From contig MFJV01000001.1 of NCBI GenBank assembly GCA_001780985.1, positions 364,049-428,048 of the forward strand: DNA of 64,000 nt, given 5' to 3'. How positions within the stretch are numbered: position 1 is the stretch's first letter; the number at the start of each line of letters is the position of its first letter. The translations under genes were made by a program, and so were the position numbers. Shown here in pieces: positions 1-28,582 of this stretch. The notes below the pieces were generated by a model. It did no database searches. It saw nothing but the letters and a program-made list of their open reading frames with translations, and had not been told where the DNA came from. Origin of the DNA: Candidatus Gottesmanbacteria bacterium RIFCSPLOWO2_01_FULL_43_11b (lineage in GTDB: Bacteria; Patescibacteriota; Microgenomatia; UBA10105; UBA927).

Positions 1-3000
1 CGATCGTAGCCAGTCGGGTGACGTCTACACGCGGATTACCAGATACGATTTCAACTCTGTCAATTTGGAATATATTAAGGTCATATGAATCTGGGCTAAA
101 AGACGCTGCAATCATGCCCGGCTGCACTGGTATACCACCGGTATCTACAACTACACCGTTTAGTACAATTAATCTTGAAGGATTAGTAGTTGCCACCGGC
201 GCGGGAGCGACTGCGGGTGGTTGCGGAGGCGGAGGAGCGGGTGGTGGAGCTGACGGGAGATTTTTTTTGGCTTCCGCAACAATTACCCGAGCCGCCATTT
301 CCACAATCTTTTTCATTTGATTTGGAGCTATATCTCCTCGTGCTTTTTCAAGCGACGGTTCAAACTGTATGGATTGATTGATTGCGTCGATGATGCTTCC
401 TGTTACAACCGCCTCGCTATCTCCACGAGTGAGCTCTGTCGTTGCTTGGGCAACAAGCTGTGTTTTTAATCCCGCTAAGTATGATTCAACCAGTAACTCT
501 GGCGCTGATTTCTGTTGCTGCTCACCAAAGTTTTTCATTTCTACCCAAAAGAATTTGTTTGTTTCTTTCCCGCTTGTATCCAAAAGCATTGCCGCAGCAA
601 TGTCTTTCGGCCAAATGAAGCCTGAAAAAGCGCCGACATTCCAAGCGGAGGGAACCGTGTAGATTCTAACTTTCGTCTCAACCCCGTCTATCAATGCCGT
701 TCCTTCAACTTTCTCCTTTGACAAAGCGACGGTAATATCATGACGAACCTGCGTATCTCTATTTTGTGCTAGTTTGGTTCGCATTGCCGCTTGGAAAAGC
801 TGTCTTCCTTTAGTCCCAAATCCGAGAATCGATAGTGTTTTATCCGAGCTTGTTATCGTCTGCAACCGATCAGGTGTAGCTGTCGGCGCAGAGGGTTGAG
901 CTGGCGCGGGTTGAACGGCTAGTTCCGGTGTTTTGGCCGCTGGTGCAGCATGCGATTGTAATAGATTAACAATGGCTACATATTCTGCAGATATCTGATC
1001 CGGTGTTTTATTTGTCGCGTCGATACGTAAATCGTATCCTAAATTAGTCACCGTAGCGCCGTGCTGAAGCAAAATCTGCTTATTTTCCTCCGAAAGAGTC
1101 TTTCCGTCGAAACCTATATCCGTTACGGGCCAACTTTTTCCACTGGCATCCGAATACACAGTTGTAATGTTTTTATTGCGCAATACATTCCCAGCTTGCA
1201 CCAAGGGAGCCTCAAAAATTGCCTCAACAGGTCCTAAGGTATAGGTAATTTTTGCCCGCGCAAAATCATCTTGAATAGCTTTTTCCGTTAAATCTTTGAA
1301 TATCGGATCAGTCCGTAAATACTCTTCATACAGTTTCAAACGTGCATCGGCATCTGATTGTGTATTAATTACGCCCATTGCTGCTTCAACCGGCGCAATC
1401 GTACTCCATGCCACAGGGATAAATTTACTTCCCGCTCCCGGGTACGGATTTGTGACAAATCCAGCCGGCGGCTCATAGGGTTTAATTTGTGTAACTAATT
1501 CAGCAGTTTTTGTACGCGACCATTGCGCAAAGAGCGCAGAGTCAACATCATCATGTTTGATCACTTCTAATTCACTTTGTATAGCATTTGATATAGCGTC
1601 TGTCGTTGTAAAATTGAGAGCTGAAACCCGACTGACTATTTCTGACTGGATTTCTTTGGTAAGGAGGCTATTAAGAATAGTAAATGCATTCGTTCGCTTT
1701 TGTTGAACCGCACGGCCCTCTTTGACAATTTTTGCAACCTCCGATCCCGGATTAAGCCGCTCAACCATAGAGAGGAGCACTTGCGGCCAGCCCGGTGCAG
1801 CAGGTAATACGCGCTCCCCAACCGGCGCTTCTACTGTGCCGATCGCAATCAAAGCGTCGCGACGAGCGCGTGCCAACGGGTACGCGGATTGGCGAAGGCT
1901 AATGGAGAGATTAAGCGCTTCTTGTGCAACTGCCTGCTCTGTCCGAACAGTTGCAATTGCTCCCGTGAGGGTAGCTGGGTACATCTGCATGAATACACGA
2001 TAATCAATGCTTACAAACACATCCCTGTAATCTTCAAATTTCTTGATGCGCGTGTTATTTGCTTCGATAAGCAGTCCTAGTCGGTAATGTTCTACCTCCA
2101 GAGGCGTATCTATCACATTGTCAATAACTCCTGAATCCTCATACTGTTTCCGCTGCGCTTCAAACCGGGCGTTCTCCTCGCGCATTGCAATAATTTCCTC
2201 CAGCCAGTATGTCCGCATCGCCTCGATAAGAGCAGCATTCTTCGGCGTACTTTCAAACTTGTCGAGATCCTTCTGCCATTTGTCAGCTATGTCTCTGGTT
2301 GTATCGCGCCACGCTTTATTTTGCTCATAACCCCATACAGCAATCCCGTAGCCGTCATCAGCAGTCGAGGAAAGATCGCTGTAAAGGTTTTTCCGCGCAG
2401 TGTAATACTCTTGGAGCGCTGCATCTGTAACTGCGCCTGCGTAGTAGCCGATAAGTTGGCTTGCCCAACCGGCAACCTTATCCTGGAACTTTCGTCCTAC
2501 CCCGAAGAACGACGCGAAACGCTGGAGAACTTCCGCGGTATCCGGCTCTGCAGAGAGAGCAGCAAGCTTTGTCTTCTTCTCATTTATTTGATTCGTTACA
2601 GCCGACAGTTTTTGTTGCAGATCAGGAATTTCACCGATGCGTATATCCGGATCCTTAAGTTTTTCGAATTTATCGATTCGAGATTGAAGATTCCCCTGTT
2701 CTCCTTTAACTTCTCCAAGGCTTGCCGCGAGTCGATCATGACGGCGCTTGCTCTGTTGTTTTTGTGCGTCGGCGATGAGTGTCTCCTGCCCTTTCACCTG
2801 CAGTTGCCAGACCGCGATATCAAGTTCGTTCGTTCCAGTCGCAAAATCAACACCGCGAGTAATTAACTGTTGCAGCCGAGCAATTTCTGCAGTCGCACCG
2901 TCGATACGTGCTTGCTCTATCTTGAATGTCGCATCGAGCGGTGTATATTCAGTCTGAAGCTTCCCGACTCTCTCTGTAATATCAGCCAGTCGTTGAGAAA

Positions 3001-6000
3001 GCCGATTGCGTTCTTTTTGTTTTTGAGCAATTATCTTCTCAGTGCTTTTTCTTTCCCGCTCTAACGAAGCCAATTCCCGTTCAAGAGCTCGCCTCCCATA
3101 TAAATCTGGGTCGACAATTGCAGCCCAGACTGCGTCGAGCCCACCGTAAAAGCCTGGCCGATCCGTCACGTCCCACGCTTTGAGACGGTCCTCGAGGAGT
3201 TGTTGTTTTGCCGTAAGTCTCACCTCTGCCTTTTCCTGATTAGCTCGGGCTGTTTCATCGAGCTCGATTCCGTTGAGTTCCAATCGCAGCGCACCGTCTC
3301 GCACAAATTCGGCGAGTGCATTCACTCTCTGGGGAATTCTTCCAATAATGGTCAAAACTCGTGAAATAAATGGCGTCCCGACCTTCTCCTTCGTTTGCTT
3401 CTCAAGATCTGAAATTTGATTGTCGAGAACCTGTACTGCCCGCTGGGCTAACCCAGTCTTGGTCAGCGTTCCGTCAGCGTTAAATAGCGGACCAGCAATA
3501 ACGTCTTTTTGAGCACTCCTCCGGGCGGATTTGAGCTGATCGAGTTTTTTCGAAAGCTGCCCAAGTTCAGCTTTGTTGGTTGCCCGAGAGAGCCACCGCG
3601 TCCAAATGCTGGAACGGAAGGAAGCAACGAAATCTATATAGGCGTGTGACTGTCGCTCACTCCATTTGGTAAGCGTATCGGACATATCGGGAACCAAATC
3701 CCGGGCAAGTTGAGCATTTTGCCTGGTTAAGAATCCGAAAGAAACCGTTGCTGCGCGTGGTGCCCATAAGAGTTGTTTGGTTGTCCATGTTCCTGTTCGC
3801 GAAATCCAAGTTCCGACAACTCGTCCCCCGGCCACAAACCACTCGGCCCCACGCGGATCAAGAGTCTTCCAAAATCCTTTCCAAAGCTCACTGACAAGAT
3901 TGATTTTCTCCGGGGCTGCATCATTGACAACCGGCTCAACAACGGCAATCTCTTTTCTTCTAAATAGATCTCTCAATCGGTCAAAGAGACTCTTTCTTGC
4001 AGGTGTCGCTGCAGTGACTGTTGTCGCAATACTTCGAGATGCAACTGCTTGCGCAATGATTGCCCCGGAAACCTGAGGTGAGTCGAGAATATCGACTGCG
4101 GCATCAAACGTTATTCCTGTCTTAACCACAATTTCGTTGATTGCGCTGTTATAGGGATCAAGGAGCTGGGCTACTATTTCTTGATACGTTCCACCGCTTG
4201 TCAACGCAACTTCAACGGCTTTTGTTTCAAAGTTAGAAACTGCAATAACCATCGCTTCATCAGGAGAAACTAAGGCACCCGGTAGTGCAGTAGAAAGACG
4301 CCTGGAAACATCAGCTCGGTGAACAACATCAAAATTAATCGCATCGACGCTTACTATATCAGACTCTTCTGGTGCAAGCGTTCCTGTAGAAAGAATTCTC
4401 TGGGCAGAAACAATGCCTGAAATAATCTCTACTCGTTGGGAATCAGTCAATAAGATGAGATTTGCACTTCCGTCTGCTGCTTTAGGTAATCCTGCAAGCA
4501 TCGTCCTGGTAGAAGTTATCACCTGATTCAGTCTAACCGGACTAGTGAAATCAACTGCTGGACGAACGACAGCAACAGGTGCAACTCCACCTGGTAGAGG
4601 AAGATCTTCTGTAGAGACAATTGGTTGACGTACGCGAAGCTCTTCGAATACTCTGCTCCACTGGGCTCGAGCTATTTGGTCCTCTGCTCGTGCTCCTCCA
4701 AAGTAGCGCTCGGAAAAATCGCTTGCCGCGTAGCGGTCTGCGAGTAATTCAAGATATTGGTTGTGGCTGGTCGGTTCGGTAACAGGCGTCCCTCCTCGAG
4801 CACCAGCGAGAAGTTCAATAAATTCGTTGTAACTTCGCAAACGAGAAATGCCCAGTTCCCGTTGAAGTTCTGCTATGGGTATGCCGGACTTCTCGCTTGC
4901 CTGACTGAGAATTTTTTCAATACGAATCTGCCCATCCACGACGGTATCGTAGACTGCGCGAAGTCCATCAACAGGTGTTTCGTTAATTCGGGATAATTGA
5001 ATTTGCGCTGTGCGCTCAGACTCAATTCTGGCAGCCTCCATAAGCGCCGTCACTTCGGTACGTGCAGTTCCCGTCACGCGCTTGGTAAGCAGATCAGCAA
5101 GTCTGCTTGTGATATTCTTTGTTACCGCCGTTGCTCCACGAATCGCTCCTCTGGTAATCTCTTCACGGACAAACTCTGTTTGATACTCTCGGAACACCCG
5201 GTCGACGACATTGCTTGCATTGACGCCAGATAGTTGCCTTGGATCATTGACGCGCAACCACTGTTCGTATGATTTTGTTTCTAAAAGTTTGTCAACTTCT
5301 GCATTCGTGTAGCCTTTATCGAGAAGTTCACGTTTTATTGTTGCGCTATCGACGGTGCGGGCCCACACACGATTTCTCGCGGTTTGCTGGATGCTCGTTT
5401 CCAAAAGTGTCCGTTGCCCATTCACATTTACCCAATGAGTATCAAAGAGCGGCGTCATATCAACTTGCTCCACTCTCCCCTTAAAGACGACCATGACCTC
5501 TTCCGGGGTAAGTCTGGTCCCTTTGTATTGATACCCTACGAGAATTTCAGGTCTATTCGGATCAAATTGGATAAATTCCTTCTGCCATAAAGAAATATCT
5601 TTAACTAGTTCTCCCGGGGTAATTTCACCATTCGGCCCAACTTCGACGATTCTGAATCCATCCGCCTCAATGATTCCAAGAACTTTCAGTCTTTTCCCGC
5701 TCGCAGTAAGACTTGTAGCGCGTGATCGAACCACTTCACGAGCGTACAAATCATATGAAATCACATCATCAGCAATAGTAACAACGAGTGCTTTATCTTT
5801 CGGAACCGTTCCCATTCCATTATTGATGAGTGTTGTAGCGCTATCTTCAATAACGAGCTTTGTCGGAGTAGAAATCGGCGGAGACGTATCGCCGAAACGT
5901 GAAAGGCCATTGAGACTCGCAGCAACTTGAGCTGTTGCCGTTGTATGAACCCCTTGCCGGGCAAGAAGTTCAAAGCTGGTAATTTCAATGGACCTCCCTG

Positions 6001-9000
6001 ATATTTCAAGATCCCCCGCTTGTAAGAAACCACGCCGTTCAACGGGAATGCCGGCAGCTTCGAGCATATTTGCCCCTTCTGTTTGAAGAACAATCCTGCC
6101 AACTGCGTCTTGGTACATTTCTCCCGTTTCACCACCGCGATGCGCAAGGGCAATGGTTACCCCGTCGGCACCAATTTTTATACTGTTACCAGGCACCGTG
6201 GAATTATAAATTTGCCAAAATCTTCGCAACCCCTCATAACGAACCGTGAGTGATGCGGCGCTATCTGCAAGCACCGTATCGCTATACCCAGTAGAACGAA
6301 ATGTATCAAAATCAGCAATTACTGTATCAGGGCTACCTGTAAACTTTTGTTTGACAAGATTGAGAGCATCTCGTGCGACTCGATTTTCCGGAATATCAAC
6401 AAGCTTCCCTAACTCAGAATCAACAAGCGCTTCGTAGGAACGGCGAACGAGCGTTGTATCGATAGGTTGAGCAACTTTACCGTTTTCTTTAAAAAGAACC
6501 TGCGTATCCCGACCTTGACTGACGCGCTCGTTATATGCTCTGGCAAACTCTCTGACTGGCTCGAGGCCGAGTACTTCACCGACGATATCAACAACGCGGG
6601 CACCAACAGTCTGACCGAATTTAGACTGCAAACCTGCAAACATTGCAGGATCATTAAGCCGGCTGATTGCAACAGGCGGATCAACAGAGACACTCCATGT
6701 TTTACCGACAAAGGTTTGAATTTCATCGGTGAGCCATTTGTTAAACTCGGGTGCGCCGTTAAAAATCTCGGCAAAGACTTCTGCATGTGGATTATTTGCA
6801 GCAAGCCGTTCTCCGAGAATCTTACCCCACGCGGTGCTATTTATATCCGTGACGACTACAAATCCGCGACCGCCATTTTTGGCGGTGTTGATATACCGTC
6901 GTACTTGAGAAGGATCGACTTTTTCGTTTGTACGTATATCAAACCATCCATTTTGTGAATCAAATCGTAACACTTTCGTCTTGTTAAAAAGCCCGCCGCT
7001 TTTATCTTTAATGAGATTGGCAAACTCTTGAGGAGCATTACCTCCAGGAAAGCTATCAAGCGTAATTCTTCCAAGCTCTGCGTTCCACAAGTCAATGAGT
7101 CGGTGTACAACTGATGTTTTTCCAGCACCGGCGAGTTTTTCGAGCGTGGTCGGGTTATTGGTTGATAAGCCCTCCAAAACAAGTTTGACTTGATCTGGAG
7201 TGAGTGTGACGGGTTTGTCGAACGCCTCGTTTGCAAAAAGGTCAATAAATTTGTTGGCTCTCTCTATAGAACGCGCAGTATACCCATCAATGCCTGATTT
7301 TGCGCCCAAATACCTTCCTTTTTCCCCGATTATTTCTATTGGACCAACACCTTCAACTACCTGCTTTGCGTAGGTATCGACGAGTTTTCCGTAATCTCCG
7401 GTGATGCGGTTGATAATTTGCTGCGGCCCGCGACGTACCGCCGCACCAACTCGATCTAAGAAGTCTCTTATACGGGGCTCTGCCCGTGTTTCTGCTGCTA
7501 CGTGAGGTGCCACTGCTGCAGCAACAGGTTCACCACCAACCTGATGACTTGCCCACGCTGCAATTGTCTCCGGTGTTGAGTAAAATCCGAGTCGCTCGGT
7601 AAGATTGCCGCGAAGATTAAGAGCTTGTGCAACTCTCCCCCTGATCGAGTTTGTGTAGGAAAATTCTAGTTGGAATGCCTGAACACTTTTTTCAATATTT
7701 GTGTATGTTGCTCTCTCCCTGGCAACATCAGTTAACACCCTGGTTACACTTCGGGGGGTAACTCTTTGGAGTTGTTCCATATTGGAAAGTCTCTCTTGAG
7801 CCAAAGTAAGTCTTTTATTTGCTGCCTCAAGCGCCGATGGCTCCCTCCCCGCTCCCCTTAGCTCTTGGGCAACGAGTCGCAATCGTTCAACTTCTCCACT
7901 TAACCGGGTAATTTGCGCATCAAACTGTTCACGCGGGTGTGTAATAAGATAAAGTTCGTCTTCAATAAATTGACGTTCGTTTCCGGATTTAGCTAACTCA
8001 TCGAGTGAGAGTTTTAGCTGTGAGTGTATGCCGCGTTGAATTGCAGTCTGAGTTTTGATTGCAACTTGTTCTTTGACTGCCGTTATCTCTTCCAGTTTTG
8101 CATTGTAGCGACCTTCATATTGAAGTTTCTGCCCTTCGGTAAATCCACCAACATTTTCTTTCGTCAAACGCTCGAATTCTGTTTGAAGTTCTTTCAGTTT
8201 TGCCGATTCTGCTGCCGCTTTACTCGCATCACTTCGTGAAACAGACTGGAGTGCTACTCTTTCTGAAGAAATTTTTGCTTGAACCTCAAGAATTTTACTC
8301 GTTGCCAAGTCAAGACCTCTCGGGAGTATATCGGCTCTTCCTTTTAGTGCTTTATATTCTTTAAGTGCGGCACTCAATTCTTTTTGCGCATTGGTCCATG
8401 ATTCAGGCCTACCCGAGAGCCGTATGCCGTTCGCGTTTCCTTCGACAAAACCTACCTGAAACATTGCTTCTCGAAGCCTTGTGGCAATTTCTTGACGCAG
8501 AGACAGATCGATGGGTTTTTCAACACCGTCTATTTTTACAAGTTTGCCGTTTTCATTTACCCGCAGTTCTTTTGCTAACAGTTCCACCTCCGCAAGTCTC
8601 TCACGCGGCCCTTCACTTACAGTCGGTCTGGTTTCTGCCTGGGCATGGCCTTTGAGAGATAATCCAGCAAATGAAAGCGCCATGAGACAATTTTGATCCG
8701 GCGCTTTTCCTTGAAGTACCGGCGCGCATGCGCTTGCGGCAAATGCGCTGTTAACGGTTTTGTCGGCTCCCGCAATGACATTGGCTTGTGGTCCATAGAT
8801 AAAATTAGAGGGCGCAAATAATCGGTATCCACCCAAAACCGCCATTGTGCTACTTATTGCGCAGTTGACACCATCACCTTTCGAACAAGCTTCGTATGCT
8901 GGTACCCCGAAGGCAACGACCTGCGCTCCACCGAGAACGCGATTGGCAACCGGAGATTGCGTGAGACGAATCAAAGGATTAAACACTGCTCGAAAACCCT

Positions 9001-12000
9001 CTTGAGTCGTAGGTGCTACCTGCCTTCCAATTGCAGCAATTGCTTTTTCTTGCGCGTCTTTGGTAATTGCATCCGTTACTCCCTGTTTAACTGAATTTGC
9101 CGAAACTTTTCCTACTGTTACTACAACTCCAGGTTCAGCTCCAACGAGAGCAAGCGATGTTGCACCCTGAATAAGCGCACTTCCCGCCACAAAAGTCATC
9201 GCACTGCTTCCGGCACAGGAGGCTCCTTGCTCAAACGAACGAATCCCGTAACAAACCTCGGCTGTTTGAGCAAAGCTATCTCCGGTCATCTTTGCAGACA
9301 ACATTGTCGAGACAACTTGAGGACCGACTTTCCAGGTCATAACCGCAGATCCCAACCGCGCCATAGAACCAATCCCCAGCCCCAACGTTGCGGTCTCACC
9401 GACAATTTGGCCAGTCTGCATGAGGCGGCCACTCGTTCCCTCCCACCACGTTGCGAGACTGTGGTCGCCAGCTTGCCACTTTTTATCCGCTTCCCCCGTG
9501 CGAAGCACTCCTCGGATTGAAGACCCATTCGTATGCTGGTTGAGCCACAATCCTGCTTGAACGAGTTGATTATCCCAGTCGATAGATTCTTTTAAGCCGG
9601 AATAGTCAAAACCCAAAAGCACCTGATCAACATGACTAGCTTGGTCACTGACATTGGAGCTTGCTAGAAGGTAATCTATATCATCTTTAACAGTGAGATA
9701 ATCTTGAAATTGACCAACCCGACACTCATCAATATCCGAAATCCCTTGCGATTTGCATTTTTGCATAACCGAAGATTTCTCAAACGATGCGTCATAGTAT
9801 GATTTTGTTTGTGGCGGTAACGAAGATATATATGCATCATAGAAAAGTTTTTGTGTCTCTTTCGTGAGCTCCTTCTGTTCATTCAAACACGTCTCTCTAT
9901 CTGAAATGCCTGTAAATCGAGTGCAACCGCTCGCGCTCGGCTGCGTAACTATTCCTTTCAGAGTTTGTGCGACTGTTGTTGAATCTATCTTTCCGCTTGA
10001 TATACCACGGGAGAGCCAGTTTGGATCATCAGCAAAAAGCGCAGTGATACTCTTCTCAACCGGACTCTGGAATGTTTTCCGAATAAAATCTCCGCTCCAC
10101 CATGGTCCGTCAAGAACAATATCATTTTGTAAATCATACGCAGCAGCACGTTGGATGTTTTGAAAATCTTCAATCGTAACATTTGGGTTTGACTCTCGGT
10201 ACGTTAAGAATGCTTGAGCCACTTCCGGGGCAAAGTTGCTCTTGACATACGAGGTGACGTTCTTGTTGTAGAGTTCGTAAAAATTCTCTTTATCTTCTCT
10301 GCCTTTCTCTCCGCTATCCCAGATCGTTCGGATTTCATACGTGTCTCCCTCTGTCTTAACCGCTTCACGCCTGACATAAAGACCGGTCACTGCGTCCTGC
10401 TCAATATATGATTTACCGGCAATTGCAACGCGTTCAATGCCCGTCGCCGGATCAATAACGCGAGTTCCCTCAACACAATCTCCTTTGCTACAGATTCCTG
10501 AATCACAAGTTTTGTTTATCGTCGCCGTCCCGTGGAGGTTTTTGATGACCGTAGCAACCCCTCCGCCGTCGGGAGTACACTGCGCAATTTTTTCTGGAGC
10601 AAGTTGGATAAACCCAAGCCATTGCTTTGCCGGTGTCACCTTTTGTTCAAATCCGCCGACCGGGGCGGGAATATAATCCGGAAGGAACTCTTCGGGGAGA
10701 ACACCGATGAGAATTTTTTGTGCCGCTGCCGCATCGTCACACTCCCTGCTCTCCCGTCTTTCGGCAAAATTACGAGAAACCGCATCGCGGCAATTTTCGA
10801 TAACGACACTTGCATTGCCGGACTGAAGTGCTTCGAGAATGGGGAGGTACTTTTGCTCTATCTTTTTCCTCGACTCTTCTGCCGCAGCCAGAAGTTTCGG
10901 TATCGCGGCGTCTGCTTCGCTACGTAGATTTTCCGGAAGTTTTGCTCTGTATTTGGCTGCTTCACTTTCATTTCCGGCAATCTTCGCGTTAATGTAGTTT
11001 TCGTAGTTTGTATAGTTGGTTGTGACAGCAACTGCAACTTTCGGATTCCAACTCTTGAGATCACTAAGTACCTGATTTGGATTAACGCATGCTACACCGG
11101 GAGTTTGCTTACATTTCTCCCACTCAAATTTTGCGTTTGCATATTCAACAAAATATTTATTTTGAACATGGTCGGTAAAATTTTCATCTAACGCTTTTTT
11201 ATCTCCGTAGAGTCCCCCTGTTTCAATAAATGCCTTGTTCATTGCCAGTTGATATCCACTGCACCCTATCGACCCAAAGCTTGCCCCGCTTCCGACCTTA
11301 CACTGTTCATATAATTCTTTTTTTTCAAAATATTCCCCAATGGCAAGTTGAGCTTTCAATGGCTGACTTAATTTGGCTTTTTGAACAGAGTTGAGTATTC
11401 CAAGATTACTCAGCGCTTGATCTTGGCACGATGTACTGTTCGCATTTGGCTGCCCCATGCACGTCTCAAATTTTTTCTGAGACTCTGCCAGTGCGTTTTG
11501 TTTTTTTGCATACAAATCAGCCAAACGCTCATTAGTGATTACATAGTACCTGCCTCCCAAAACGAAATATTCACCTCGTTCAAGTTTATTTGCTTCTGTT
11601 CTTGATATTTCCTGACGTGCGTACTCAGGAATAGCATTGGTATCCGGCACACAATATGCTTGGCCAGTACAATCTATCCATTGGAGAAATCCTCCGGAGC
11701 CTTTTCCACAGGCATAGTAATGATCCACGCCTCCCACAACATTACCGATAACAATCGATCCCTCACTGCGTCCGCCGCAATTTCCTCCCGCCGAAGTGTC
11801 TGCCCCTGCTGCCAACAGTTCTTTTTTCTGCTGCTCTTCAAACGGTACACTCTGTACAGCCTCCTGCGTTTTTGATCCTTCATACCAACTCGGTTTATAT
11901 TTTTCCGTAAGATTTTCTTCGGTGACTCCTACATCGAGTGCTGTCAAATCAATATATTCCCCTGTTCCGCCATCACACCCGTAAATGTGATGTGCCTCTC

Positions 12001-12573
12001 CGATGACAATTGCTCCTGCGTCAATTCCACCACAACCCTTATTTCCCCGTTTCAAATCCGGTAGCGTTGGGGTTTGCGGAGGTTGCGGGGTTTCAACCGG
12101 AACTGGGGTTTCAGGTGTCATTTTTTCAGATTCTTTCGGAGTTGTACTAGGAATAACAGGCTCAAGAATCTCTTCTTTCCGGCACATACGTAAATCCGCT
12201 CCGGTAAAACCAGCGCAAGGGTCTATTGGGGTTGTTGGCTGTTGGGGCTCTTCAGCCGGTTCCGGCTTTTCTGGTTTCTCCGGCTTGGGTTCTCGTTTCT
12301 CATCGCCTTTATACGATCCGCCCGTTGATTCTTTTGGAACCCACGCTAAACTTCGAATATCAAACGTCTGATTCCGCACACTTTGTACTACAAAAACCAT
12401 GCTGGTGGAAAATACGACAAGTAGTAAAAGAGGGAGAAGGTGAATGATGCCACGTTGACTATTGCTTTCTATAAAGAAATGTATCAATCGTGAGGATTTT
12501 TGGAATGAAATGTGAAATTTCCTAATGTTAATAAATACTGCAACCCGGGCAAGAATAATTTGCATGCGCAAAA
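1..12573 (-). CDS. Giant secreted/surface-type multidomain protein of unknown function, partial. It continues past window position 1, so more than 4,190 aa lie inside the window. Start is ambiguous among ATG 12573, ATG 12555, TTG 12467 and ATG 12400.
   Basis: By-eye reverse-complement translation gives one continuous frame. ATG at 12400 and the in-frame Met at 316 share the same frame (both coordinates are 1 mod 3). The ORF track reports no minus-strand ORF in that frame anywhere in 320..12400, so the frame has no internal stop in the window; other frames show only short shadow ORFs. N-terminus: ...RGIIHLLPLLLLVVFSTSMVFVVQ (hydrophobic anchor), then EKREPKPEKPEKPEPAEEPQQPTTP, then two Cys modules (GCGGIDAGAIVIGEAHHIYGCDGG and NCGGRSEGSIVIGNVVGGVDHYYACGKGSGG). 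Later regions are Gly/Ala-rich hydrophobic and coiled-coil-like. AGGGAAG lies 7 nt upstream of ATG 12573. Confidence 0.75.
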
Positions 12574-12651
12574 AACTCGACATTATCGAGCTTCCCTATT
12601 ATTACTATGGATAACAAATGTAATCATGTCAAGAACGTGAAAACTGGGGGT

Positions 12652-12682
12652 TGACAAATTTAAAAGTTCTTATCAAACTGTG
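12652..12682 (+). promoter_or_regulatory. Sigma70-like promoter candidate (TTGACA -35, AT-rich -10 region) upstream of the 70-aa membrane-protein gene
   Basis: gggggTTGACAaatttaaaagttcttatcaaact, located 9 to 35 nt upstream of ATG 12691. Confidence 0.3.
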
Positions 12683-12690
12683 AATAGAGT

Positions 12691-12903
12691 ATGAAAAAGA
12701 AACGCAGTCGACGCACACACCACCGCGCTAGAGTTGTCCGAACCAAACCATCAGAGAATTATCTTGTTGTTGTACGAAGCTGGATGCTCGTGGTTCTTTT
12801 TGCCATTATGCTTGGCGTTGGAGCGGTGGTGGGAACCTTCCTCAATACTCAGCTCAACGTTTCCTCTCCTCAAGTTGCAGGTGTTGAAGTAGAACTTAAG
12901 TAA
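12691..12903 (+). CDS. Small basic membrane protein (70 aa, one TM helix), hypothetical
   Basis: ORF MKKKRSRRTHHRARVVRTKP... followed by hydrophobic helix LVVLFAIMLGVGAVVGTFL; promoter-like element upstream. Confidence 0.5.
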   Translation: MKKKRSRRTHHRARVVRTKPSENYLVVVRSWMLVVLFAIMLGVGAVVGTFLNTQLNVSSPQVAGVEVELK

Positions 12904-12943
12904 CGCATAACCCTCTTTGTTTTGATATAATTCCCATAGTTAC

Positions 12944-13016
12944 GGGCCTGTAGCTTAGTTGGTAGAGCGCCGCATTCGCATTGCGGAGATCACCGGTTCG
13001 ACTCCGGTCAGGTCCA
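12944..13016 (+). tRNA. tRNA-Ala (anticodon CGC)
   Basis: Cloverleaf readable: acceptor GGGCCTG/CAGGTCC with G3:U70 Ala identity pair; anticodon stem CCGCA/TGCGG with loop TTCGCAT; T-arm GGTTCGACTCC. Confidence 0.85.
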
Positions 13017-13021
13017 CAAAA

Positions 13022-13092
13022 GGGCCCGTCGTATACCGGTAGTATGACTCCATGGCATGGAGTAGAAAGGGGTTCGATTCCCCTCGGGTCCA
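13022..13092 (+). tRNA. tRNA-Ala (anticodon GGC)
   Basis: Acceptor GGGCCCG/CGGGTCC with G3:U70; anticodon stem ACTCC/GGAGT with loop ATGGCAT; T-arm GGTTCGATTCC; D-arm needs G-U pairs. Confidence 0.75.
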
Positions 13093-13093
13093 C

Positions 13094-14170
13094 TTATTTG
13101 AGAAACGGACGGGGATCGACGGAAACACCGTTTTTGCGTACTTCAAAATGAAGATGCGGACCACTTGATCGACCAGAGGAACCCAGCTTCCCAATAATTT
13201 GTCCTCGCGCGACCCTATCTCCCGGAGCAACATAAATTGCACTCAAATGAGCATAAAGAGTTGAAAGTCCATTCCCATGATCGACAATTATATGCTCTCC
13301 ATACCCATACCGGAGATATTGCACAACGCTCACAACCCCTGCATCTCCCGCAGCCACACCAGGAAGTCCAGGATTTGCGATATCAAGCGCCATATGATAC
13401 CAAACCGGATACTGTGTGATCATTCCTCCTACCGGCCAAACAAACTGGCCAGTACCACCTGCGGCAATTGGAGGTAATGCTCGTATAATTGCAGGAGCCT
13501 GGGGTTGAACTCCATCGGGCACAACGAGTGTTTGCCCTACGTTAAGTGCAAAGGTATCAAGATCAGAAAAATCATTAAACGGAAAGTTGACGATTTTCTG
13601 GGCTTCAGTTTTATATTTTTTTGCAATGCTATAGATAGTTTCCCCTTCACGAACCTTGTGCACAATTCCGGTAACAGGAGGAATTTTTAATTCCTGACCC
13701 ACACTCAAACTATCTCTTTTTAGATCATTCGCCCATTTTATTGTATCAATTGATACTGCAAATTTTTCTGCTATTTTAGCAAGCGTATCTCCTCCTTCAA
13801 CGGTATAGGTAATTACTTGATCGCGCGGTTTTTCAGAAATCTGCGTTTGCACGCCGTATTCCGTCAAATCAAACGACGAGAGTGCTGCTGAAGGAGGTGT
13901 AAACTCAGCAAGTGCCGCAGGGAGTCCTCCTGGATAGGTACGAGCCAATATTGGACCTCCCATAACACCAACAGCAAAGAGAATGCTTAACGAAAAATAG
14001 AGAAATGGTCGCTGGTATGTTCCACGACGAGCCATGAGGATTTCCACGAGACTATCTTTATTCGTTTCAAACCAATGGCCAAATCGCGAAAGTTTCCGTT
14101 CGAGGTATACTCCCCACCCTCGTAACCACAAAACAACATCGTCTTTAAAACCGACAAAATATTTTTTCAT
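13094..14170 (-). CDS. LysM-domain M23 (LytM-type) peptidoglycan peptidase with N-terminal membrane anchor
   Basis: Two LysM-like segments (DTLAKIAEKFAVSIDTIKWANDL...; TIYSIAKKYKTEAQKIV...) and C-terminal M23 motifs (HMALDI..., GQIIGKLGSSGRSSGPHLHFEV). Confidence 0.85.
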   Translation of the reverse strand: MKKYFVGFKDDVVLWLRGWGVYLERKLSRFGHWFETNKDSLVEILMARRGTYQRPFLYFSLSILFAVGVMGGPILARTYPGGLPAALAEFTPPSAALSSFDLTEYGVQTQISEKPRDQVITYTVEGGDTLAKIAEKFAVSIDTIKWANDLKRDSLSVGQELKIPPVTGIVHKVREGETIYSIAKKYKTEAQKIVNFPFNDFSDLDTFALNVGQTLVVPDGVQPQAPAIIRALPPIAAGGTGQFVWPVGGMITQYPVWYHMALDIANPGLPGVAAGDAGVVSVVQYLRYGYGEHIIVDHGNGLSTLYAHLSAIYVAPGDRVARGQIIGKLGSSGRSSGPHLHFEVRKNGVSVDPRPFLK

Positions 14171-14198
14171 TGGGATAAGTCGGAGGGTAACACAAACT

Positions 14199-15557
14199 TT
14201 ACCCCTTTGCGAGGCTTTCGAGGAATTCTTCGTTGCTTTTACTTTTAGAGAGTCGCTCGATAAGCATCAGGGTACGTTCTTCGTCGGATAGAAGCGAGAG
14301 CATATGTCGAAGTGTCGTTACTTTTTTCATCACTTCTTCCCCTAAGAGAAGTTCGTCGTGGCGTGTACCGGACTTGCCTACATCTATTGCCGGAAAAACA
14401 CGACGTTCCTGCAAAACGCGTGAAAGAGTGAGCTCCATGTTTCCTGTTCCTTTAAATTCTTCATAAATAAGGTCATCCATGCGACTCCCCGTATCAATAA
14501 GTGCTGTTCCGATAACCGTCATCGACCCCCCGCCTTCAACACACCGAGCTGCTCCTAAGAATCTTTTTGCAGGATAAAGAGCGGCTGGATCAAACCCTCC
14601 GGATAACGTTCGGCCGCTTGGATTAACAACAAGGTTGTATGCCCTGGCAAGTCGTGTTATTGAATCGAGAAGAATCACTACATCTTTACCCATTTCAACA
14701 AGTCGTTTCGCCCGATCCAAAGAAACCTCTGCAATACGCGTTTGTTCAGCTGGTGATTCATCGAAGTTGCTGGCAAACACTTCACCTTCAACCGATCGAC
14801 TGATATCAGTAACCTCCTCCGGTCGCTCCCCGATTAACGCCGCCATGAGGTGTACTTCTGGGTAATTCTTTGAAATTCCTGCAGCAATTTCTTTCAGTAT
14901 TGTTGTTTTCCCGGCTTTTGGAGGGCTGACGATTAAACCCCGCTGACCAAATCCAATCGGTGCAACCAGATCAATCATGCGCGTCGAAAGCGGTGCCTGA
15001 CCTGTTTCAAGTTTGAGGTGTTTATTGGGGTATATGGGGGTAAGATCCTCAAATTTTGCCCGTGTCTCCATCTTATCAGCTGAGACTTCATTGACTTTTT
15101 CTACTTTGAGAAGCCCCCAATATCGCTCGTTATCCTTTGGAGGCCGGGCTTGTCCTTCGACCATATCACCATTACGAAGTAAAAATCTGCGGATTTGCGA
15201 CATGGAAATGTAAATATCCTTTTCACTGGGGGTGTATTTAGGGCGGAGAAATCCATGCCCTTCCGGCATTGTATCTAAAACACCACGGACTGTTTCGGTG
15301 GGAACGTCAATATCCGGCGTATGATTACCGTTTGGAAAATTTCCTCCGCCAAAATTTCTTTGTGGCCTTCGGAAGCCAAAATTTCTCGGACGCGGCACAT
15401 ACCCTGGCCTTGCTTGTGTTTCTTGCGTTGCTGGTGTTGCTACTTTCGGACCACCGACAAAATCCTCGACACTCGCTTCGGATGCGTCGCTTTTAGTATC
15501 CTCAACTATTGGAGGTGGACTTTGTACAGATGATTTTTTCGTGGCTCGAAAAGCCAT
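14199..15557 (-). CDS. rho: Transcription termination factor Rho
   Basis: P-loop [12 protein letters not shown], Rho signature regions ([43 protein letters not shown]), extended N-terminal domain. Confidence 0.95.
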
Positions 15558-15672
15558 AGATGTGGAAATGGAATTATATGGAAATCAAAAAACTTCGAGA
15601 GGGATAAACTTCTCTGGTTGCTCTGCATTAAACCACGTTCACCGTTTCTTGTCAATACCCTTCGACTTTCGC

Positions 15673-17703
15673 TCAGGGCAAGACATCAACCTGATAGATA
15701 ACCGTCTCACCAGACCGAAATGCTTCGTATCCGAGAATTGAAAATTTCTCTTCGTTAAGATTTTGATACTTTTCCCGTTCGAGGGTGCCGACAACAACAT
15801 AGAGAACGTTAAATTTACCGAGTAGTTCTCGCGTAAGATCAGTATTATCCGCTTCGTAAATCAAGCGCACAATCTCGCGCCTCGGCGAGACTACATCGTA
15901 ACTTCCTCGCCACAGCCATTCATGAACAGCCCACCCAATAACCGTCGGACTACCGGTAAAGGCAGAAAAACGGGCGTAATCCGTATAACTATCCCCATCT
16001 GCCTCAACAAGTATTATTTGGTCACTGGGTTCTGTGTTCTGAGTTCTTAGCCACTGTATGGCAGCATAATCATCAGGATATTCCCGTTCCAACCAGCTCA
16101 GTCCGTAAATTCCTTCATAATTTTTCAGGCTGTTAAAGTAGCTCCGGACGCTAAATATTGGATATATGGAAACTAACAAAAGTTGGGGGATAAGAAATAC
16201 GAAAAAAAGTTTTTTCCGAATCTTCACAATTACATATGCAGCAATAATTGAAAATATAATAAATGCCTGATAGCCGAGTTTAAACATTGTGTTACTTCGA
16301 AAATGCGCCGGATATATATCTTTGAAATAAAAAAATTCAGGGAAAATAATCAGTGCCAAAGAGAATATAAAGAACACTTTTAGTATTCTCTCGTTTAGAT
16401 TACTCTTTTGCTTTATATGTGAGGTTTCAGAAAAAAATAACCAATACCCGCAGTAAAGAAAAAATCCCCATAGGAGCATCATCATCCACAGCGGTGACCG
16501 CTGACATTTTTCAATCGTTTCAAAAATAATAGGACCGATTTTCGTATTTTGTAAAAACGCCGGCGGACAGTTCACTGCAAGACCATTAACGAAAGAGTCA
16601 AAATGAAAAAGGAATGGTAAACTTGTGACTATTGCGGCAATTAACACAGTGACTATAGCGCTCCCCTTCTCATACAACCGACCGATAGAGCGTATGATGG
16701 TGACGATCGCAAACAAACCAAAGTAAATTGGGCCGTCTAAGGCGTTGGTCATAAGGAGAATTCCGCACAAAAATCCATAAAAAATAGCATTTCCCTTTTG
16801 AATAAGAAGGGCTATAGCCAGAAGCGTAAACGGAATGGAGAGTACATGGCCATGGACGTCTGATACGACAAAGGAGTAACTGGGAAATTCATGAATTGTG
16901 AACGGAATAAAACGGGTTGCATTTGCATACCAATACGTATTTAATCCCTCTATTGTCCAACCAATATTCCAAAACGGTGCGACATTGTCTCCTAAATACC
17001 CCTTAGTAAAGGCATAGATTGTCTGCATGTTCCCTGCAAAAGTTACGAGAAATGCAGTTAATAACCCACCCCAAATTTTTCCGGTCAACTGCTTCCCTAT
17101 TGAAAAACTCATGGTGAAACAGAAGGCAAAAATCGTAGCGAGCATGAGATTAAATGTATACGCAAGGCTCTGACCGGACAATTTCGTTAACACCGCAGTA
17201 ACAAGATGCCCAAAATAATAGTAATTAACAGGATCTCCCGCATACCACATATCCGGAGGGGGGAAAACCTGCCTGCCGGCAGGCAGGTATCCGGAGTTGA
17301 GAATTGATTGCATGAAGCCAAAATCCATGAATTTCTCGAGTCCCCGGATAGACGGCTCATGCGCTTTAACCCAGGTCCAAAAAAGTAGTGCAAAAAAGAA
17401 AAAAAATTCTTCAAAAAGAATTAAACGGTTCTTTTTTGAAGCTTTTCCATGGAATCGAAAACTCAAAAGAAATAGAGCACCTAAAGAAATGAGAGTCGTT
17501 ACATTAGTAAATGGGGCAATCTTCAGAGTTCCCAACACATAGACAACCCAAGATACAAGTGCGATCCCCACTGCTTTACCAAACAAATACCCTTCATCAA
17601 ACCAGGATGAAAAAAGTCTTCGTGTCAGAGGGTATGCAGCTGCACCAAAAAGCAGCAGTGTCCCCCACCACCGTACAACAATCCAAAAATCCGACAGAGG
17701 CAT
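15673..17703 (-). CDS. DUF2298 / Chlor_Arch_YYY-family polytopic membrane protein (putative glycosylation-related)
   Basis: 676-aa multi-TM protein containing the NYYYFGH motif typical of the YYY domain family. Confidence 0.6.
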   Translation of the reverse strand: MPLSDFWIVVRWWGTLLLFGAAAYPLTRRLFSSWFDEGYLFGKAVGIALVSWVVYVLGTLKIAPFTNVTTLISLGALFLLSFRFHGKASKKNRLILFEEFFFFFALLFWTWVKAHEPSIRGLEKFMDFGFMQSILNSGYLPAGRQVFPPPDMWYAGDPVNYYYFGHLVTAVLTKLSGQSLAYTFNLMLATIFAFCFTMSFSIGKQLTGKIWGGLLTAFLVTFAGNMQTIYAFTKGYLGDNVAPFWNIGWTIEGLNTYWYANATRFIPFTIHEFPSYSFVVSDVHGHVLSIPFTLLAIALLIQKGNAIFYGFLCGILLMTNALDGPIYFGLFAIVTIIRSIGRLYEKGSAIVTVLIAAIVTSLPFLFHFDSFVNGLAVNCPPAFLQNTKIGPIIFETIEKCQRSPLWMMMLLWGFFLYCGYWLFFSETSHIKQKSNLNERILKVFFIFSLALIIFPEFFYFKDIYPAHFRSNTMFKLGYQAFIIFSIIAAYVIVKIRKKLFFVFLIPQLLLVSIYPIFSVRSYFNSLKNYEGIYGLSWLEREYPDDYAAIQWLRTQNTEPSDQIILVEADGDSYTDYARFSAFTGSPTVIGWAVHEWLWRGSYDVVSPRREIVRLIYEADNTDLTRELLGKFNVLYVVVGTLEREKYQNLNEEKFSILGYEAFRSGETVIYQVDVLP

Positions 17704-17748
17704 ATGGAGAGATTATACCTCGTGTTACAATAATGCACATGGCAAAAA

Positions 17749-19334
17749 GAACAGAGTGGTTGATCTTGGCTTCTATACTTGTTATTGGAGCTTTATTCCG
17801 TTTTTACAATCTCAATTGGGATCAAGGACACTATTTTCACCCTGACGAACGAAATATAGCAGTTGCAGTAGGCAAAATTCGCTTTTTTTCCCAAATGAAT
17901 CCGGATTTTTTCGCGTACGGTAGTGTTCCTGTTTACCTTTACCGATCAGCCGCGGATATCGTCGTAAAAATAACCGGTGATGTTGATTGGACGAGAGACT
18001 GGGGAAAAATAAATCTTATTGGGCGGCATTTCTCCGCGCTCTTTTCAACAATAACAGTTCTTCTTGTATACCTCTTGACCCGAAAAATTCTCATACCCAC
18101 CGCAGCACTTGTTGCCGCATGGGTTACTGCAACAACACCGATACTTATTCAACAAGCGCATTTTAGTGTTACTGAAAGCATGCTCGCATTCTGGGTAGTA
18201 CTCCTCACCTATCTCACTGTTCAAAGAAAAAATCCTATTATTTTAGGTTGCATGTTTGGGCTTAGTGTGGCAACAAAAATGTCTGCCTTAAGCTTCGGAA
18301 TCATACCAATTGCCATGTTCATTTGGAAAAAACAAACCAAACGAATATTCATTTTTCTCCTGACTGCATCGCTTATCTATGGAATACTCTCTCCCTACAC
18401 ATTTTTGCGCTGGGATAAATTCATGGAATCGATGAACTATGAAGGCGGCATTATCACGGGGAAACTCCTGGTTGTTTACGTGTACCAATTCCTGCAGACA
18501 CAACCATACCTCTACCAGCTCTCTCAACTTCCCTATACCCAGGGGTATGTTCTCGCAGGATTAAGCATTGCCGGATGTATTTTGCTTATCATAAACACTA
18601 CAAAACACAAAAAATGGCCTATTGTAATGGTCTTTCTCTGGCCTTTACTCTATTTTCTCTACGTCGGGAGCTGGTTTACAAAATTCGTCCGCTACTTTGT
18701 ACCTCTCTATCCCTTTTTATCTATTGCGGCGGCGTATTTTATTGCGAATCTTAATAAAAACATTAAGTGGGTATTCCTCGCAGTCCTTGTGATTAGTCCG
18801 TTTCTTCGAAGTATTGCATTTATGCATATCTATGCTTCCCCACAAACGCGAATTGCCGCATCCGACTGGATTTATGAAAACGTTGCGAAAAAATCCACGA
18901 TACTCACGGAACATTGGGATGATGGATTGCCTCTCTCATTTTCTCCACAAAAAGATCCCGGAATTTACCAAACCCGACAGCTGACCATTTACGAGCCGGA
19001 TAATTTAGAAAAAATTGACTACTATGCTGAAAATCTAAGTCAGGCAGACTTTCTGTTTATAAATAGTCGCAGGCTCTACGGAACGCTCATGCATCTATCC
19101 AATCGCTATCCTATTACAAGCAAGTACTACAAATTATTATTTAATGGATCTCTCGGATACAAAAAGGTGGCAGAATTTACCGTTTACCCCACCCTAAAAC
19201 TTGGCTCTTGGGTATTTGAGTTTAATGATGACAATAGTGAAGAAAGTTTTCAGGTGTATGATCATCCTAAGGTATTCATTTTCGAAAATGTTGCTCACCT
19301 CTCAAAAGAACAATTGAAGACACAATTCTTATGA
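17749..19334 (+). CDS. GT-C family membrane glycosyltransferase, PMT/ArnT (GT39)-like
   Basis: Multi-TM protein with first-loop HYFHPDER (DE-type motif). Start chosen at MAKRTEW (17749) because the longer track ORF (17511) overlaps the divergent DUF2298 gene. Confidence 0.6.
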
Positions 19335-27335: not shown

Positions 27336-27367
27336 GACAAAAACGCTTTTATCCTTGAGTCCCCCGG

Positions 27368-28549: not shown

Positions 28550-28582
<33 letters not shown>

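Follow-up and report, generated by a model that had tools for sequence, protein, structure and literature searches.

A minus-strand gene of at least 4,194 codons encodes a predicted envelope protein built around a candidate helicase-like P-loop NTPase module

The window, by which we mean the whole stretch of 64,000 nucleotides that was analyzed, contains on its minus strand a frame that is free of stop codons from position 12595 to position 2 (4,198 codons, first codon bases at 1 mod 3) and that continues beyond the left edge. The second-longest open frame anywhere in the window has 699 codons. The original prediction had proposed, in this frame, one minus-strand gene without interruption and over 4,190 codons long, and we found exactly this: the 4,198-codon frame was recovered when open reading frames were recomputed allowing them to run over the window edge, and no in-frame stop occurs between 1 and 12400, the frame being open throughout. 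The gene had also been correctly described as absent from the supplied ORF track, which lists nothing longer than 181 aa in 1-12573, because the ORF lister omits edge-running frames by design. Given the base composition, the probability of 4,198 stop-free codons arising by chance is about 1e-110. The GC3 of the gene (0.396) is equal to that of 14 neighboring genes, the codon-usage log-likelihood is best in the giant frame (-3.99 versus -4.29 to -4.50), and the coding signal is even throughout the ORF. Two independent assemblies are 100% identical to the window, L001 over 11773-14488, which includes the 5' end of the giant gene, and L005 over 13242-15669. The homologue encoded on L011 is collinear with the giant protein in three aligned blocks, and collinear homologues with equally long and intact ORFs are present in at least five other metagenomes. 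We conclude that the giant ORF is a genuine, native and uninterrupted gene. The chance level, the uniform coding signal, the identical 5' end in an independent assembly and the intact collinear homologues effectively refute the notions that the frame is open by chance, results from misassembly or belongs to a pseudogene, to which we assign a negligible probability.

Five candidate start codons were considered: ATG 12583, TTG 12571, ATG 12565, TTG 12487 and ATG 12400. The gene likely starts at ATG 12583, the start chosen by the gene caller on the independent contig L001, with a Shine-Dalgarno-like AGGGAAG (12597-12591) located 8 nt upstream; together with a promoter-like TTGACA-17-CATAGT (12632-12604) this element forms a putative expression signal at 12591..12632 on the minus strand, both parts being consensus matches only. 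The start originally predicted, ATG 12400, was rejected in favor of ATG 12583, as translation from there would begin in the middle of the N-terminal hydrophobic helix. The gene thus spans 2..12583 on the minus strand with at least 4,194 codons, and its C-terminus lies beyond the window edge. Residue numbers given below are counted from the codon at 12595, the initiator methionine being residue 5.

Beyond the 5' end of the gene lie two tRNA genes, tRNA-Ala(CGC) and tRNA-Ala(GGC), a LysM-M23 peptidase gene and the gene for Rho (12944..15557), a chromosomal neighborhood whose order is conserved. The same locus was found in L011 and L009/L010, in the order Rho (86% identity), M23 peptidase (64-66%), two tRNA-Ala genes and giant gene. 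The giant proteins encoded at the orthologous locus are only 22-31% identical, far below their neighbors; the gene is probably vertically inherited but very fast-evolving. A 23S rRNA with two group I introns and neighboring genes with exact matches in groundwater assemblies suggest a genome of the CPR type; identical Rho and M23 proteins are encoded on contigs of 0.2-1 Mb.

At its N-terminus, the protein carries a hydrophobic anchor (residues 50-70; 12386..12448, minus strand, as for all features of the protein) preceded by a K/R-rich segment. With a Wimley-White dG of about -11.8, this anchor is the sole robust transmembrane (TM) helix in the portion of the protein within the window. It is followed by a juxtamembrane FDIRSLA (residues 78-84; 12344..12364), which is conserved in P0005, L011, L010 and P0002, as read directly from their sequences, and is carried by none of the other window ORFs. 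Next come Pro-rich linkers (residues 102-123 and 160-176; 12068..12292) and a region with 24 cysteines in 12 local pairs (residues 127-958; 9722..12217), presumably extracytoplasmic, of which residues 177-512 are shared with P0005 (24% identity) and the part from residue 575 onwards with L011/L007 (31%). A conserved G/A/S/T-rich helical zone (residues 1064-1318; 8642..9406) comprises seven short helices of marginal hydrophobicity, with dG values of -2.3 to +6, two of them too short to cross a bilayer. Three loops of this zone, the alternate loops 2, 4 and 6, carry cysteine pairs at conserved positions, and the long loop 3 is mildly K/R-rich. A seven-TM arrangement may be possible: it would fit the alternate-loop cysteine pattern, although the polarity or shortness of the helices speaks against it. 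Further along the chain, composition and heptad periodicity suggest a charged, Pro/Gly-poor coiled-coil-like stretch (residues ~1340-1660; 7616..8578), which precedes a helicase-like P-loop NTPase module (residues 1740-2620; 4736..7378), the family-defining part of the protein.

The remainder consists of an orphan region that has no counterpart in the family (residues 2621-3698; 1502..4735) and includes a second coiled-coil-like stretch at ~3000-3500, a conserved island (residues 3699-3885; 941..1501) that is 61% identical to L011 as against 24-31% outside the island, a segment shared with P0006 at 38% identity (residues ~3878-3978; 662..964) and finally a Pro-rich linker (residues 4114-4133) followed by the start of a further domain that is cut by the window edge (2..256). 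Self-BLAST yielded the identity match only, hence no internal repeats were detected. Searches of Pfam, NCBIfam, PHROG, PADLOC and PDB gave no match to the giant protein, none of the Pfam or NCBIfam models reaching its cutoff over the 4,198 aa.

An exhaustive search of 1.84 billion representatives returned six matches, five of which are giants of 2,968-7,435 aa that align with the window protein over the ~850-aa module (residues ~1740-2600; E = 1e-12 to 4e-27). The giant protein appears to be part of an undescribed and rare family, of which only about eight further giant proteins are known, all from metagenomes; as defined here, the family comprises P0002-P0006, L010 and L011. Its members have an N-terminal anchor, a Cys-paired N-terminal part and a Cys-depleted remainder, and the NTPase module is the only part common to all of them. 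Accessory domains vary among the relatives and include FHA domains (in three relatives; that of L011 lies ~415 aa past the conserved island), PP2C, VanY, methyltransferase, M48, phosphoesterase and Pretoxin-HINT (PT-HINT), the latter at residues 108-256 of L010, directly past the anchor. When GTDB genomes were scanned for protein patterns from the C-terminal 1,199 aa, no match emerged, and DNA anchors from the window had no exact counterpart in GTDB representative genomes or JGI metagenomes.

The motifs shared by the family modules read AGGGKT, DE(I/V)G, GGTTGE, GYDATP, YEGRxRAVD and KRNRV. The window copy is the most divergent (GGETGE, HTTATA, FKGRVEQVD, ARNRV) and retains Walker A and Walker B. 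Its Walker A, LAGAGKTS (residues 1821-1828; 7112..7135), conforms to a pattern AG.GK[TS] whose A, G, G and K do not vary among the nine sequences. The Walker-B-like WLTDEIQ (residues 1954-1960; 6716..6736) corresponds to the family form hhhhDE(I/V)G, its DE(I/V) core being present in 8/8 full-length modules (P0001, a fragment ending before Walker B, was excluded from this count). Candidate Q-, III-, V- and VI-like motifs are conserved in the order of SF2 helicases, III, V and VI having been assigned by eye; in the window protein, the motif-III-like HTTATA lies at 5930-5947 and the motif-VI-like QQTARNRV (family form Q..KRNRV) at residues 2403-2410 (5366..5389). The presence of the module in every member and its unchanging Walker A residues indicate that it is under purifying selection. 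The original prediction that no motif of a known family could be assigned was thus right as far as every HMM library is concerned, but overlooked this helicase-like set of Walker A and Walker B motifs.

Attempts to place the module in a described family were made at several levels. None of the Pfam SF2 models (DEAD, ResIII, Helicase_C, SNF2) matched any of the nine modules even at E ≤ 10. A weak match to AAA_30 (E = 0.007) covers 46 residues. DUF3638 (PF12340) matched five of the nine modules weakly from the Q-motif to Walker A; membership was not supported, the scores being 11-16 bits against a gathering cutoff of 31 and confined to profile positions 15-64 of 225. A published deubiquitinase paper examined in this connection does not describe such an ATPase. 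SecA membership, prompted by a resemblance noted by eye, was unsupported in three tests: a profile search against PDB returned nothing, hhalign against a validated E. coli SecA aligned Walker A only (E = 0.2), and a local HMM placed GYDATPDTAA on the SecA sequence GMTGTADTEA at -1.6 bits (p ~0.2). AlphaFold2 gave a pLDDT of 52.9 for the module from seven input sequences, with values of 30-40 over the P-loop lobe, and of 42.1 for the conserved island from two input sequences. Foldseek found nothing significant with the low-confidence module model (best E = 0.04, TM < 0.13). Judging from its motifs, the module could be an uncatalogued helicase-like P-loop ATPase and is a candidate for a new domain family.

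The distribution of cysteines divides the protein sharply. All 30 cysteines lie within ~1,250 residues of the N-terminal third, before residue 1303, and form 15 local pairs (permutation P = 2e-5), whereas the remaining 2,895 residues are cysteine-free (P = 8e-9). The relatives follow a similar pattern, with 52 cysteines before the module and none after it in P0002, and counts of 57/0/3 in L011 and 42/0/4 in P0005. In the latter, the module is followed by PP2C, a strong TM helix and VanY, and cysteine pairs return only past the TM helix; several relatives, P0005 and L010 among them, have strong TM helices past the module. From this pattern, the Cys-paired N-terminal part is probably extracytoplasmic. 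In the producer, the NTPase module would be placed in the cytoplasm because in the relatives it is joined to domains whose ligands are cytoplasmic: three FHA domains, PP2C, a SAM methyltransferase and a metallophosphoesterase. It is to be noted that the complete lack of cysteines over 2,895 residues and their near-absence from the enzyme domains of the relatives are unusual for cytoplasmic proteins and count against this placement. Strong depletion of cysteine typifies proteins translocated in an unfolded state, among them colicins, RTX toxins and T3SS effectors.

The reading that we favor, with a probability of roughly one half, is that of a giant mosaic envelope protein acting as a fast-evolving, ATP-powered, envelope-spanning machine. 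The anchor would export the disulfide-stapled N-terminal third to the cell surface, and the helical zone would sit in the membrane and bring the chain back to the cytoplasm, where the NTPase would hydrolyze ATP. The cysteine-pair loops 2, 4 and 6 and the K/R-rich loop 3 of the zone speak for this course, and the marginal hydrophobicity of its helices speaks against a return to the cytoplasm. By way of the coiled-coil stalks and the membrane zone, the NTPase might then drive conformational work on the surface part or move a polymer at the membrane, for the purpose of host-cell contact or cell-wall remodeling, with lineage-specific accessory modules tuning the machine. A link to host interaction, already part of the original prediction, is plausible from lifestyle, rapid divergence and surface exposure, the only grounds on which it is based. 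We also envisage a more daring and clearly unlikely version, in which ultra-small episymbiotic bacteria would possess, in a single polypeptide, a previously unknown machine that uses ATP for translocation or injection across the envelope. A helicase/SecA-like motor would sit below a polar, disulfide-stapled helical channel, and the polymer that it feeds through the giant surface part, whether into the host cell or out of it, would be nucleic acid or the cysteine-free C-terminal effector array of the protein itself.

The same features can be arranged differently. If everything past the anchor were exported, the protein could be a delivered giant effector resembling polymorphic toxins or MARTX, whose hairpin zone would insert into the host membrane and whose ~2,900 cysteine-free C-terminal residues, comprising the ATPase and variable enzymes, would enter the host cytoplasm unfolded and find ATP there. 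The cysteine depletion of the module and of all enzyme-like tails throughout the family, where only local pairs are tolerated, speaks for such a fate, as do the presence of only one robust TM helix, the marginal helices stapled into three hairpins like insertion hairpins, the Pretoxin-HINT autoprotease directly past the anchor in L010, the differing enzyme modules at the orthologous locus and the Pro-rich linkers. We nevertheless hold delivery to be rather doubtful. The universally conserved core is an ATPase and not an apparatus recognizable as serving delivery, although it is the payload that normally varies; FHA and PP2C usually belong to endogenous signaling; the strong TM helices past the module in P0005 and L010 fit a resident polytopic protein; the window protein has no toxin, RHS, RTX or LCT-translocon domain; and no immunity-like gene was seen within the window, which ends before the region downstream of the giant gene.

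A passive surface fibril or adhesin, in which length and stickiness serve attachment and the P-loop motifs are remnants or coincidences, would account for the N-terminal anchor, the disulfide-rich exposed region, the Pro-rich linkers and the long coiled-coil-like stretches, and giant membrane proteins have been implicated in attachment in another CPR bacterium (PMC8080830). An adhesin in the usual sense, named in the original prediction, is nevertheless not supported, given the absence of internal repeats and of Ig, cadherin, RTX, lectin or other adhesin domains, and a most conserved part that is an ATPase in need of the cytoplasm. This module is the sole part common to all members, with an invariant Walker A, and the relatives bear enzyme and signaling domains, not adhesion modules; a fibril therefore seems quite improbable. 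Finally, the flanking tRNA-Ala genes, the adjoining M23 peptidase, the mosaic domain content and a weak PHROG tape-measure match in a coiled-coil stretch (E = 8e-4) could recall a protein of mobile-element or phage origin, tape-measure-like or of the "polyvalent" conjugative/phage type, integrated beside tRNA genes. Such an origin is very hard to reconcile with GC3 and codon usage identical to those of the housekeeping neighbors, with a chromosomal synteny with Rho that is conserved across lineages, with a Pfam scan of the 30 larger ORFs of the window, which showed no phage or conjugation genes and in which the neighbors proved to be housekeeping genes, and with the lack of relatives in IMG/VR contigs, 50,697 phage genomes and 72,556 plasmids.

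To our knowledge, apart from type IV pili, little has been explained of the physical means by which CPR/Patescibacteria make contact with their hosts and exploit them. The locus offers a concrete, conserved and testable candidate for such engagement, in which a disulfide-rich surface part would be coupled to a conserved NTPase that is recognized by no domain, family or structure library searched. The cysteine partition might in addition serve as a simple sequence rule for predicting topology in such giants. Its practical value is limited, since the organisms have not been cultivated and the function is an inferred one; nor are giant orphan proteins rare among such lineages.

Several known systems share some of these traits. 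With SF2 helicases and translocases, the module would have in common the order of its candidate motifs: Q-like, Walker A (xxGxGKT), DExx, (S/T)AT-like, GR..D-like and Q..R.R-like. Like SecA, here a topological analogue, it has a large insertion of ~260 aa between motifs II and III. Unlike these enzymes, the window protein is matched by no Pfam helicase or SecA model, and its module is fused into a membrane protein of more than 4,000 aa, which distinguishes it from any described SF2 enzyme. Polymorphic toxins, MARTX and large clostridial toxins resemble the family in their giant size, N-terminal export signal, hydrophobic hairpin region, variable enzyme modules among relatives, strong cysteine depletion and, in one orthologue, PT-HINT. 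In contrast to them, the window protein has no RHS, filamentous-hemagglutinin or RTX repeats, no CPD, no LCT pore domain and no known toxin domain. A pretoxin module preceding a C-terminal toxin is absent from the 4,198 aa, the PT-HINT of L010 being N-terminal and not pre-toxin, and the conserved core is an ATPase, unlike in toxin systems.

EssC of the T7SS is an FHA-bearing membrane ATPase of ~1,500 aa with FtsK/SpoIIIE-type ATPase domains. By analogy, three relatives would likewise combine membrane segments with a cytoplasmic P-loop ATPase and FHA, but the FtsK-type signature is missing and the window portion of the protein has no FHA. Repeat-built adhesins (Bap, RTX, SiiE, Ig- or cadherin-repeat proteins) differ from it in their tandem repeats and adhesin, Ig-like or RTX domains, none of which it has, and phage tape measure proteins are set apart by its housekeeping neighbors and by the absence of homologues from the viral and phage collections. 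The giant membrane proteins of CPR/Patescibacteria are comparable in size class, predicted membrane or surface location, ultra-small episymbiotic-type genome and presumed surface role. The ten longest proteins of Vampirococcus lugosii measure 1,392-4,163 aa and carry WD40, PKD, integrin, fibronectin and DUF11 domains (PMC8080830); unlike them, the window protein has no recognizable interaction domains, is non-repetitive and is built around an NTPase module.

The minus strand of the window carries a frame of 4,198 codons without a stop, from 12595 to 2, which runs past the left edge and bears out the original prediction of a single uninterrupted giant ORF. The runner-up open frame in the whole window has 699 codons, and the probability of 4,198 stop-free codons at the given base composition is ~1e-110. 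The frame is indeed missing from the ORF track, as had been claimed (the longest ORF listed within 1-12573 is at most 181 aa), because the listing leaves out edge-running ORFs by design. GC3 is 0.396 both in the giant frame and in 14 neighbouring genes, and with the codon table of the neighbours the giant frame scores best (-3.99 versus -4.29 to -4.50 in the other five frames). The giant frame has a native coding signal along its whole length. Two independent assemblies are 100% identical to the window, L001 over 11773-14488, covering the first ~270 codons of the giant gene, and L005 over 13242-15669; the chance that the frame is an artefact is very small. Candidate starts read from the sequence on the minus strand are ATG 12583, TTG 12571, ATG 12565, TTG 12487 and ATG 12400. 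The last of these, initially proposed as a start alongside upstream ones, would split the N-terminal hydrophobic helix, and ATG 12583 is better placed, with an SD-like AGGGAAG upstream, a promoter-like TTGACA-17-CATAGT lying 5' of it and the start annotated on L001. Residues are numbered here from the codon at 12595, the initiator Met being residue 5. Divergent from the promoter region, a 70-aa ORF (12641-12853, plus strand), which has one hydrophobic helix and is basic at its N-terminus, is also called as a gene on L001.

No family of Pfam, PHROGs, NCBIfam or PADLOC matched the giant protein above threshold, and no sequence match was found in the PDB. The original view that it holds no motif of a known family thus stands as far as family thresholds go, but a conserved Walker A/DE(I/V) module is present at residues 1740-2620. 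Four Walker A residues (A, G, G and K) never vary in the 7- and 9-sequence alignments (LAGAGKTS in the giant protein, residues 1821-1828), and neither does a Gln ~20 residues upstream that resembles a Q-motif. A DE(I/V) motif preceded by a hydrophobic strand occurs in 8/8 full-length modules (WLTDEIQ, 1954-1960), a count that leaves out P0001, a 192-aa fragment ending ahead of the motif. Further conserved blocks, which by eye follow SF2-helicase order, start about 260 residues past motif II: GGTTGE (GGETGE in the giant protein), TEG..LEAAG, GYDATP (HTTATA), YEGRxRAVD (FKGRVEQVD) and Q..KRNRV (QQTARNRV). Judged by these motifs, we consider the module to be a real, conserved P-loop NTPase with a helicase-like motif order. 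By eye it recalls SecA, which has a motif II-III insertion and GMTGTADTEA. Membership of SecA is unsupported: the family profile found nothing among PDB sequences, hhalign against the validated E. coli SecA sequence aligned Walker A alone (E = 0.2), and a local HMM set GYDATPDTAA on GMTGTADTEA at -1.6 bits (p ~0.2). A permissive Pfam scan of nine modules returned DUF3638 as the sole recurrent family (5/9), at 11-16 bits versus a cutoff of 31 and confined to the stretch from Q-motif to Walker A, and matched the giant protein's module to AAA_30 (E = 0.007). The AlphaFold2 model of the module (7-sequence MSA) had a pLDDT of 52.9, with 30-40 in the P-loop lobe, and Foldseek found nothing significant with it.

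With residues 1701-2900 as the query, an exhaustive HMMER search of 1.84 billion representatives gave six matches, all singleton clusters and each of a different source. One is the 192-aa fragment (45% identity) and five are giants of 2,968-7,435 aa sharing a common ~790-residue stretch at 25-29% identity. Loci L007-L011 came from a pattern scan of JGI metagenomes; the frame is open over >4,797 aa in L011 and >6,268 aa in L010. Pattern searches found no relative in 185,579 GTDB representative genomes, and IMG/VR contigs, phage genomes and plasmids likewise yielded none. The closest relative is L011, with 31% identity across residues 575-1661 (E = 1e-129), 24% across the module and 61% across an island at residues 3699-3885. 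This island spans 187 residues (window 941-1501, L011 aa 3268-3464), the rest of the two proteins being 24-31% identical, and in L011 two strong hydrophobic helices lie ahead of it. The island has no family or fold assignment, and AlphaFold of the island with a P0006-shared segment gave a pLDDT of 42.1.

The amino-acid composition of the giant protein is ordinary, and its sole robust TM helix is at residues 50-70 (Wimley-White dG -11.8), preceded by a K/R-rich stretch that places the chain beyond the helix outside the cell. All 30 Cys fall within residues 127-1303 as 15 nearest-neighbour pairs spaced 5-24 residues apart (permutation P = 2e-5), and the other 2,895 residues hold none (P = 8e-9 at this genome's Cys frequency, 0.64%). 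These pairs probably form local disulfides of an extracytoplasmic N-terminal third. There follow a G/A/S/T-rich helical zone (1064-1318), a charged, Pro/Gly-poor, coiled-coil-like stretch (~1340-1660), the module, an orphan region with a second coiled-coil-like stretch (~3000-3500), the island, and finally Pro-rich linkers and the first part of another domain, which the window edge truncates. The part of the giant protein within the window has no recognised accessory domain; judged by its distance from the island in L011, a comparable FHA domain would sit just past the edge.

Only the module is universal to the family. P0005, L011, L010 and P0002 share with the giant protein its N-terminal anchor and, next to it, a juxtamembrane motif. 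This motif, which directly follows the anchor (12344-12364, residues 78-84), is conserved although its flanks are not, reading FDIRSLA in the giant protein, FDIRKLA in P0005, GEIRSLA in L011, EELRSQA in L010 and QDLRGRA in P0002; it is absent from every other ORF of the window and might serve as a signal for sorting or processing. The helical zone is common to L011, L010 and P0006, with Cys-pair loops at conserved positions. The Cys partition is family-wide: P0002 has 52 ahead of the module and 0 after, L011 has 57 before, 0 within and 3 after, P0005 has 42, 0 and 4, the final ones as two CxxxxxC pairs, and the 10 Cys in the 7,435 aa of P0003 are all in local pairs. Accessory domains vary from member to member, namely a SAM methyltransferase (P0002), FHA (P0006 and L011), FHA, M48 peptidase and a near-threshold GNAT (P0003/L006), a metallophosphoesterase (P0004), PP2C and VanY (P0005) and a Pretoxin-HINT immediately after the anchor (L010). 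An extra conserved domain (SNSDGGWRS.PGY, GIYSKG) lies near FHA in several relatives (P0003 ~2330-2500, P0004 ~2990-3150, P0006 ~2370-2520) and does not occur in what the window encodes of the giant protein. The tail of P0006 (~2925-2968, with RKSTRLNSSH and CCTCC) resembles a known assembly or translation artefact, and its true C-terminus is therefore uncertain.

The window is bacterial chromosome. Besides two tRNA-Ala, the vicinity of the giant gene encodes a LysM-M23 peptidase, Rho, a DUF2298 membrane protein, a PMT-type glycosyltransferase, RadA and ribosomal protein S1, and more distant genes encode PGK, GAPDH and GDH as well as an ATP-dependent DNA ligase (59166-60857, minus strand), which is of archaeal/eukaryotic type with all three Pfam domains despite the bacterial genome. 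Identical neighbour proteins are present in the groundwater assemblies AMFJ01, ANAN16 and PRJNA292723, which we take to be Rifle aquifer data sets. Together with the intron-bearing 23S rRNA described below, these features suggest a CPR-type genome. In L011, Rho (86% identity), M23 peptidase (64%) and two tRNA-Ala precede the giant gene, and in L009/L010 M23 (66%) and two tRNA-Ala do so; this shared order indicates an orthologous chromosomal locus, at which the giant gene diverges far faster than its neighbours. A tRNA-Ala(CGC)/tRNA-Ala(GGC) pair lies between the M23 and giant genes in three lineages, in varying order and orientation (window 12944-13093, L010 947-1233, L011 2728-2889), and in L008 a tRNA-Ala(CGC) (13855-13926) overlaps the giant ORF over its final ~30 codons. 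tRNA genes flanking both ends might be the sign of a recombination-prone, hypervariable locus. The listed 5' ends of the DUF2298 (15673-17703, minus strand) and PMT (17511-19334, plus strand) ORFs overlap by ~190 nt, so the true start of one is probably downstream of the listed codon. In the rRNA region (27362-32008), with tRNA-Ala(UGC) before 23S and 5S after, the 23S rRNA (27557-31729, minus strand) measures 4,173 nt versus a 2,925-nt model and is interrupted by two group I introns, one at 27922-28180 and the other at 29102-29361; no 16S occurs in the 32 kb upstream within the window, and the operon therefore appears unlinked.

ATP, SAM and phospho-threonine ligands are confined to cytoplasm, and the module and its companion domains must therefore act in one. 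We favour, at a probability of roughly one half, the producer's own cytoplasm: the giant protein would be a resident ATP-powered machine of the envelope, its helical zone embedding in the membrane and bringing the chain back inside, and its NTPase either doing conformational work or moving a polymer across the envelope. This is suggested by the order module, PP2C, strong TM helix, VanY in P0005, whose Cys pairs return only past the TM helix following PP2C, by strong TM helices after the module in several relatives, and by the Cys loops of the zone, which are the alternate loops 2, 4 and 6, loop 3 being mildly K/R-rich. However, the zone helices are marginally hydrophobic, two are too short, and extreme Cys depletion is odd in cytoplasmic domains.

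That depletion would rather suit a delivered effector, in which everything beyond the anchor is exported, stapled hairpins enter the host membrane and the Cys-free tail crosses into the host. The presence of just one robust TM helix, the PT-HINT of L010 and the polymorphic enzyme modules point the same way. Against this, an ATPase forms the conserved core, FHA and PP2C are domains typically seen in endogenous signalling, and the relatives are polytopic; we hold delivery to be possible, if doubtful. As to an adhesin, one of the roles first envisaged, comparison of the giant protein with itself revealed no internal repeats, which rules out a repeat-built type, and a passive adhesin is improbable. 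A mobile-element origin of the giant gene is very improbable. Giant membrane proteins as such have precedents, both among CPR bacteria (PMC8080830) and among predatory bacteria (bioRxiv 10.1101/2023.11.21.568195). In the literature we found no family described that centres on this NTPase module; what is new with respect to these known giants is a candidate domain family together with a striking Cys-based topology signature.
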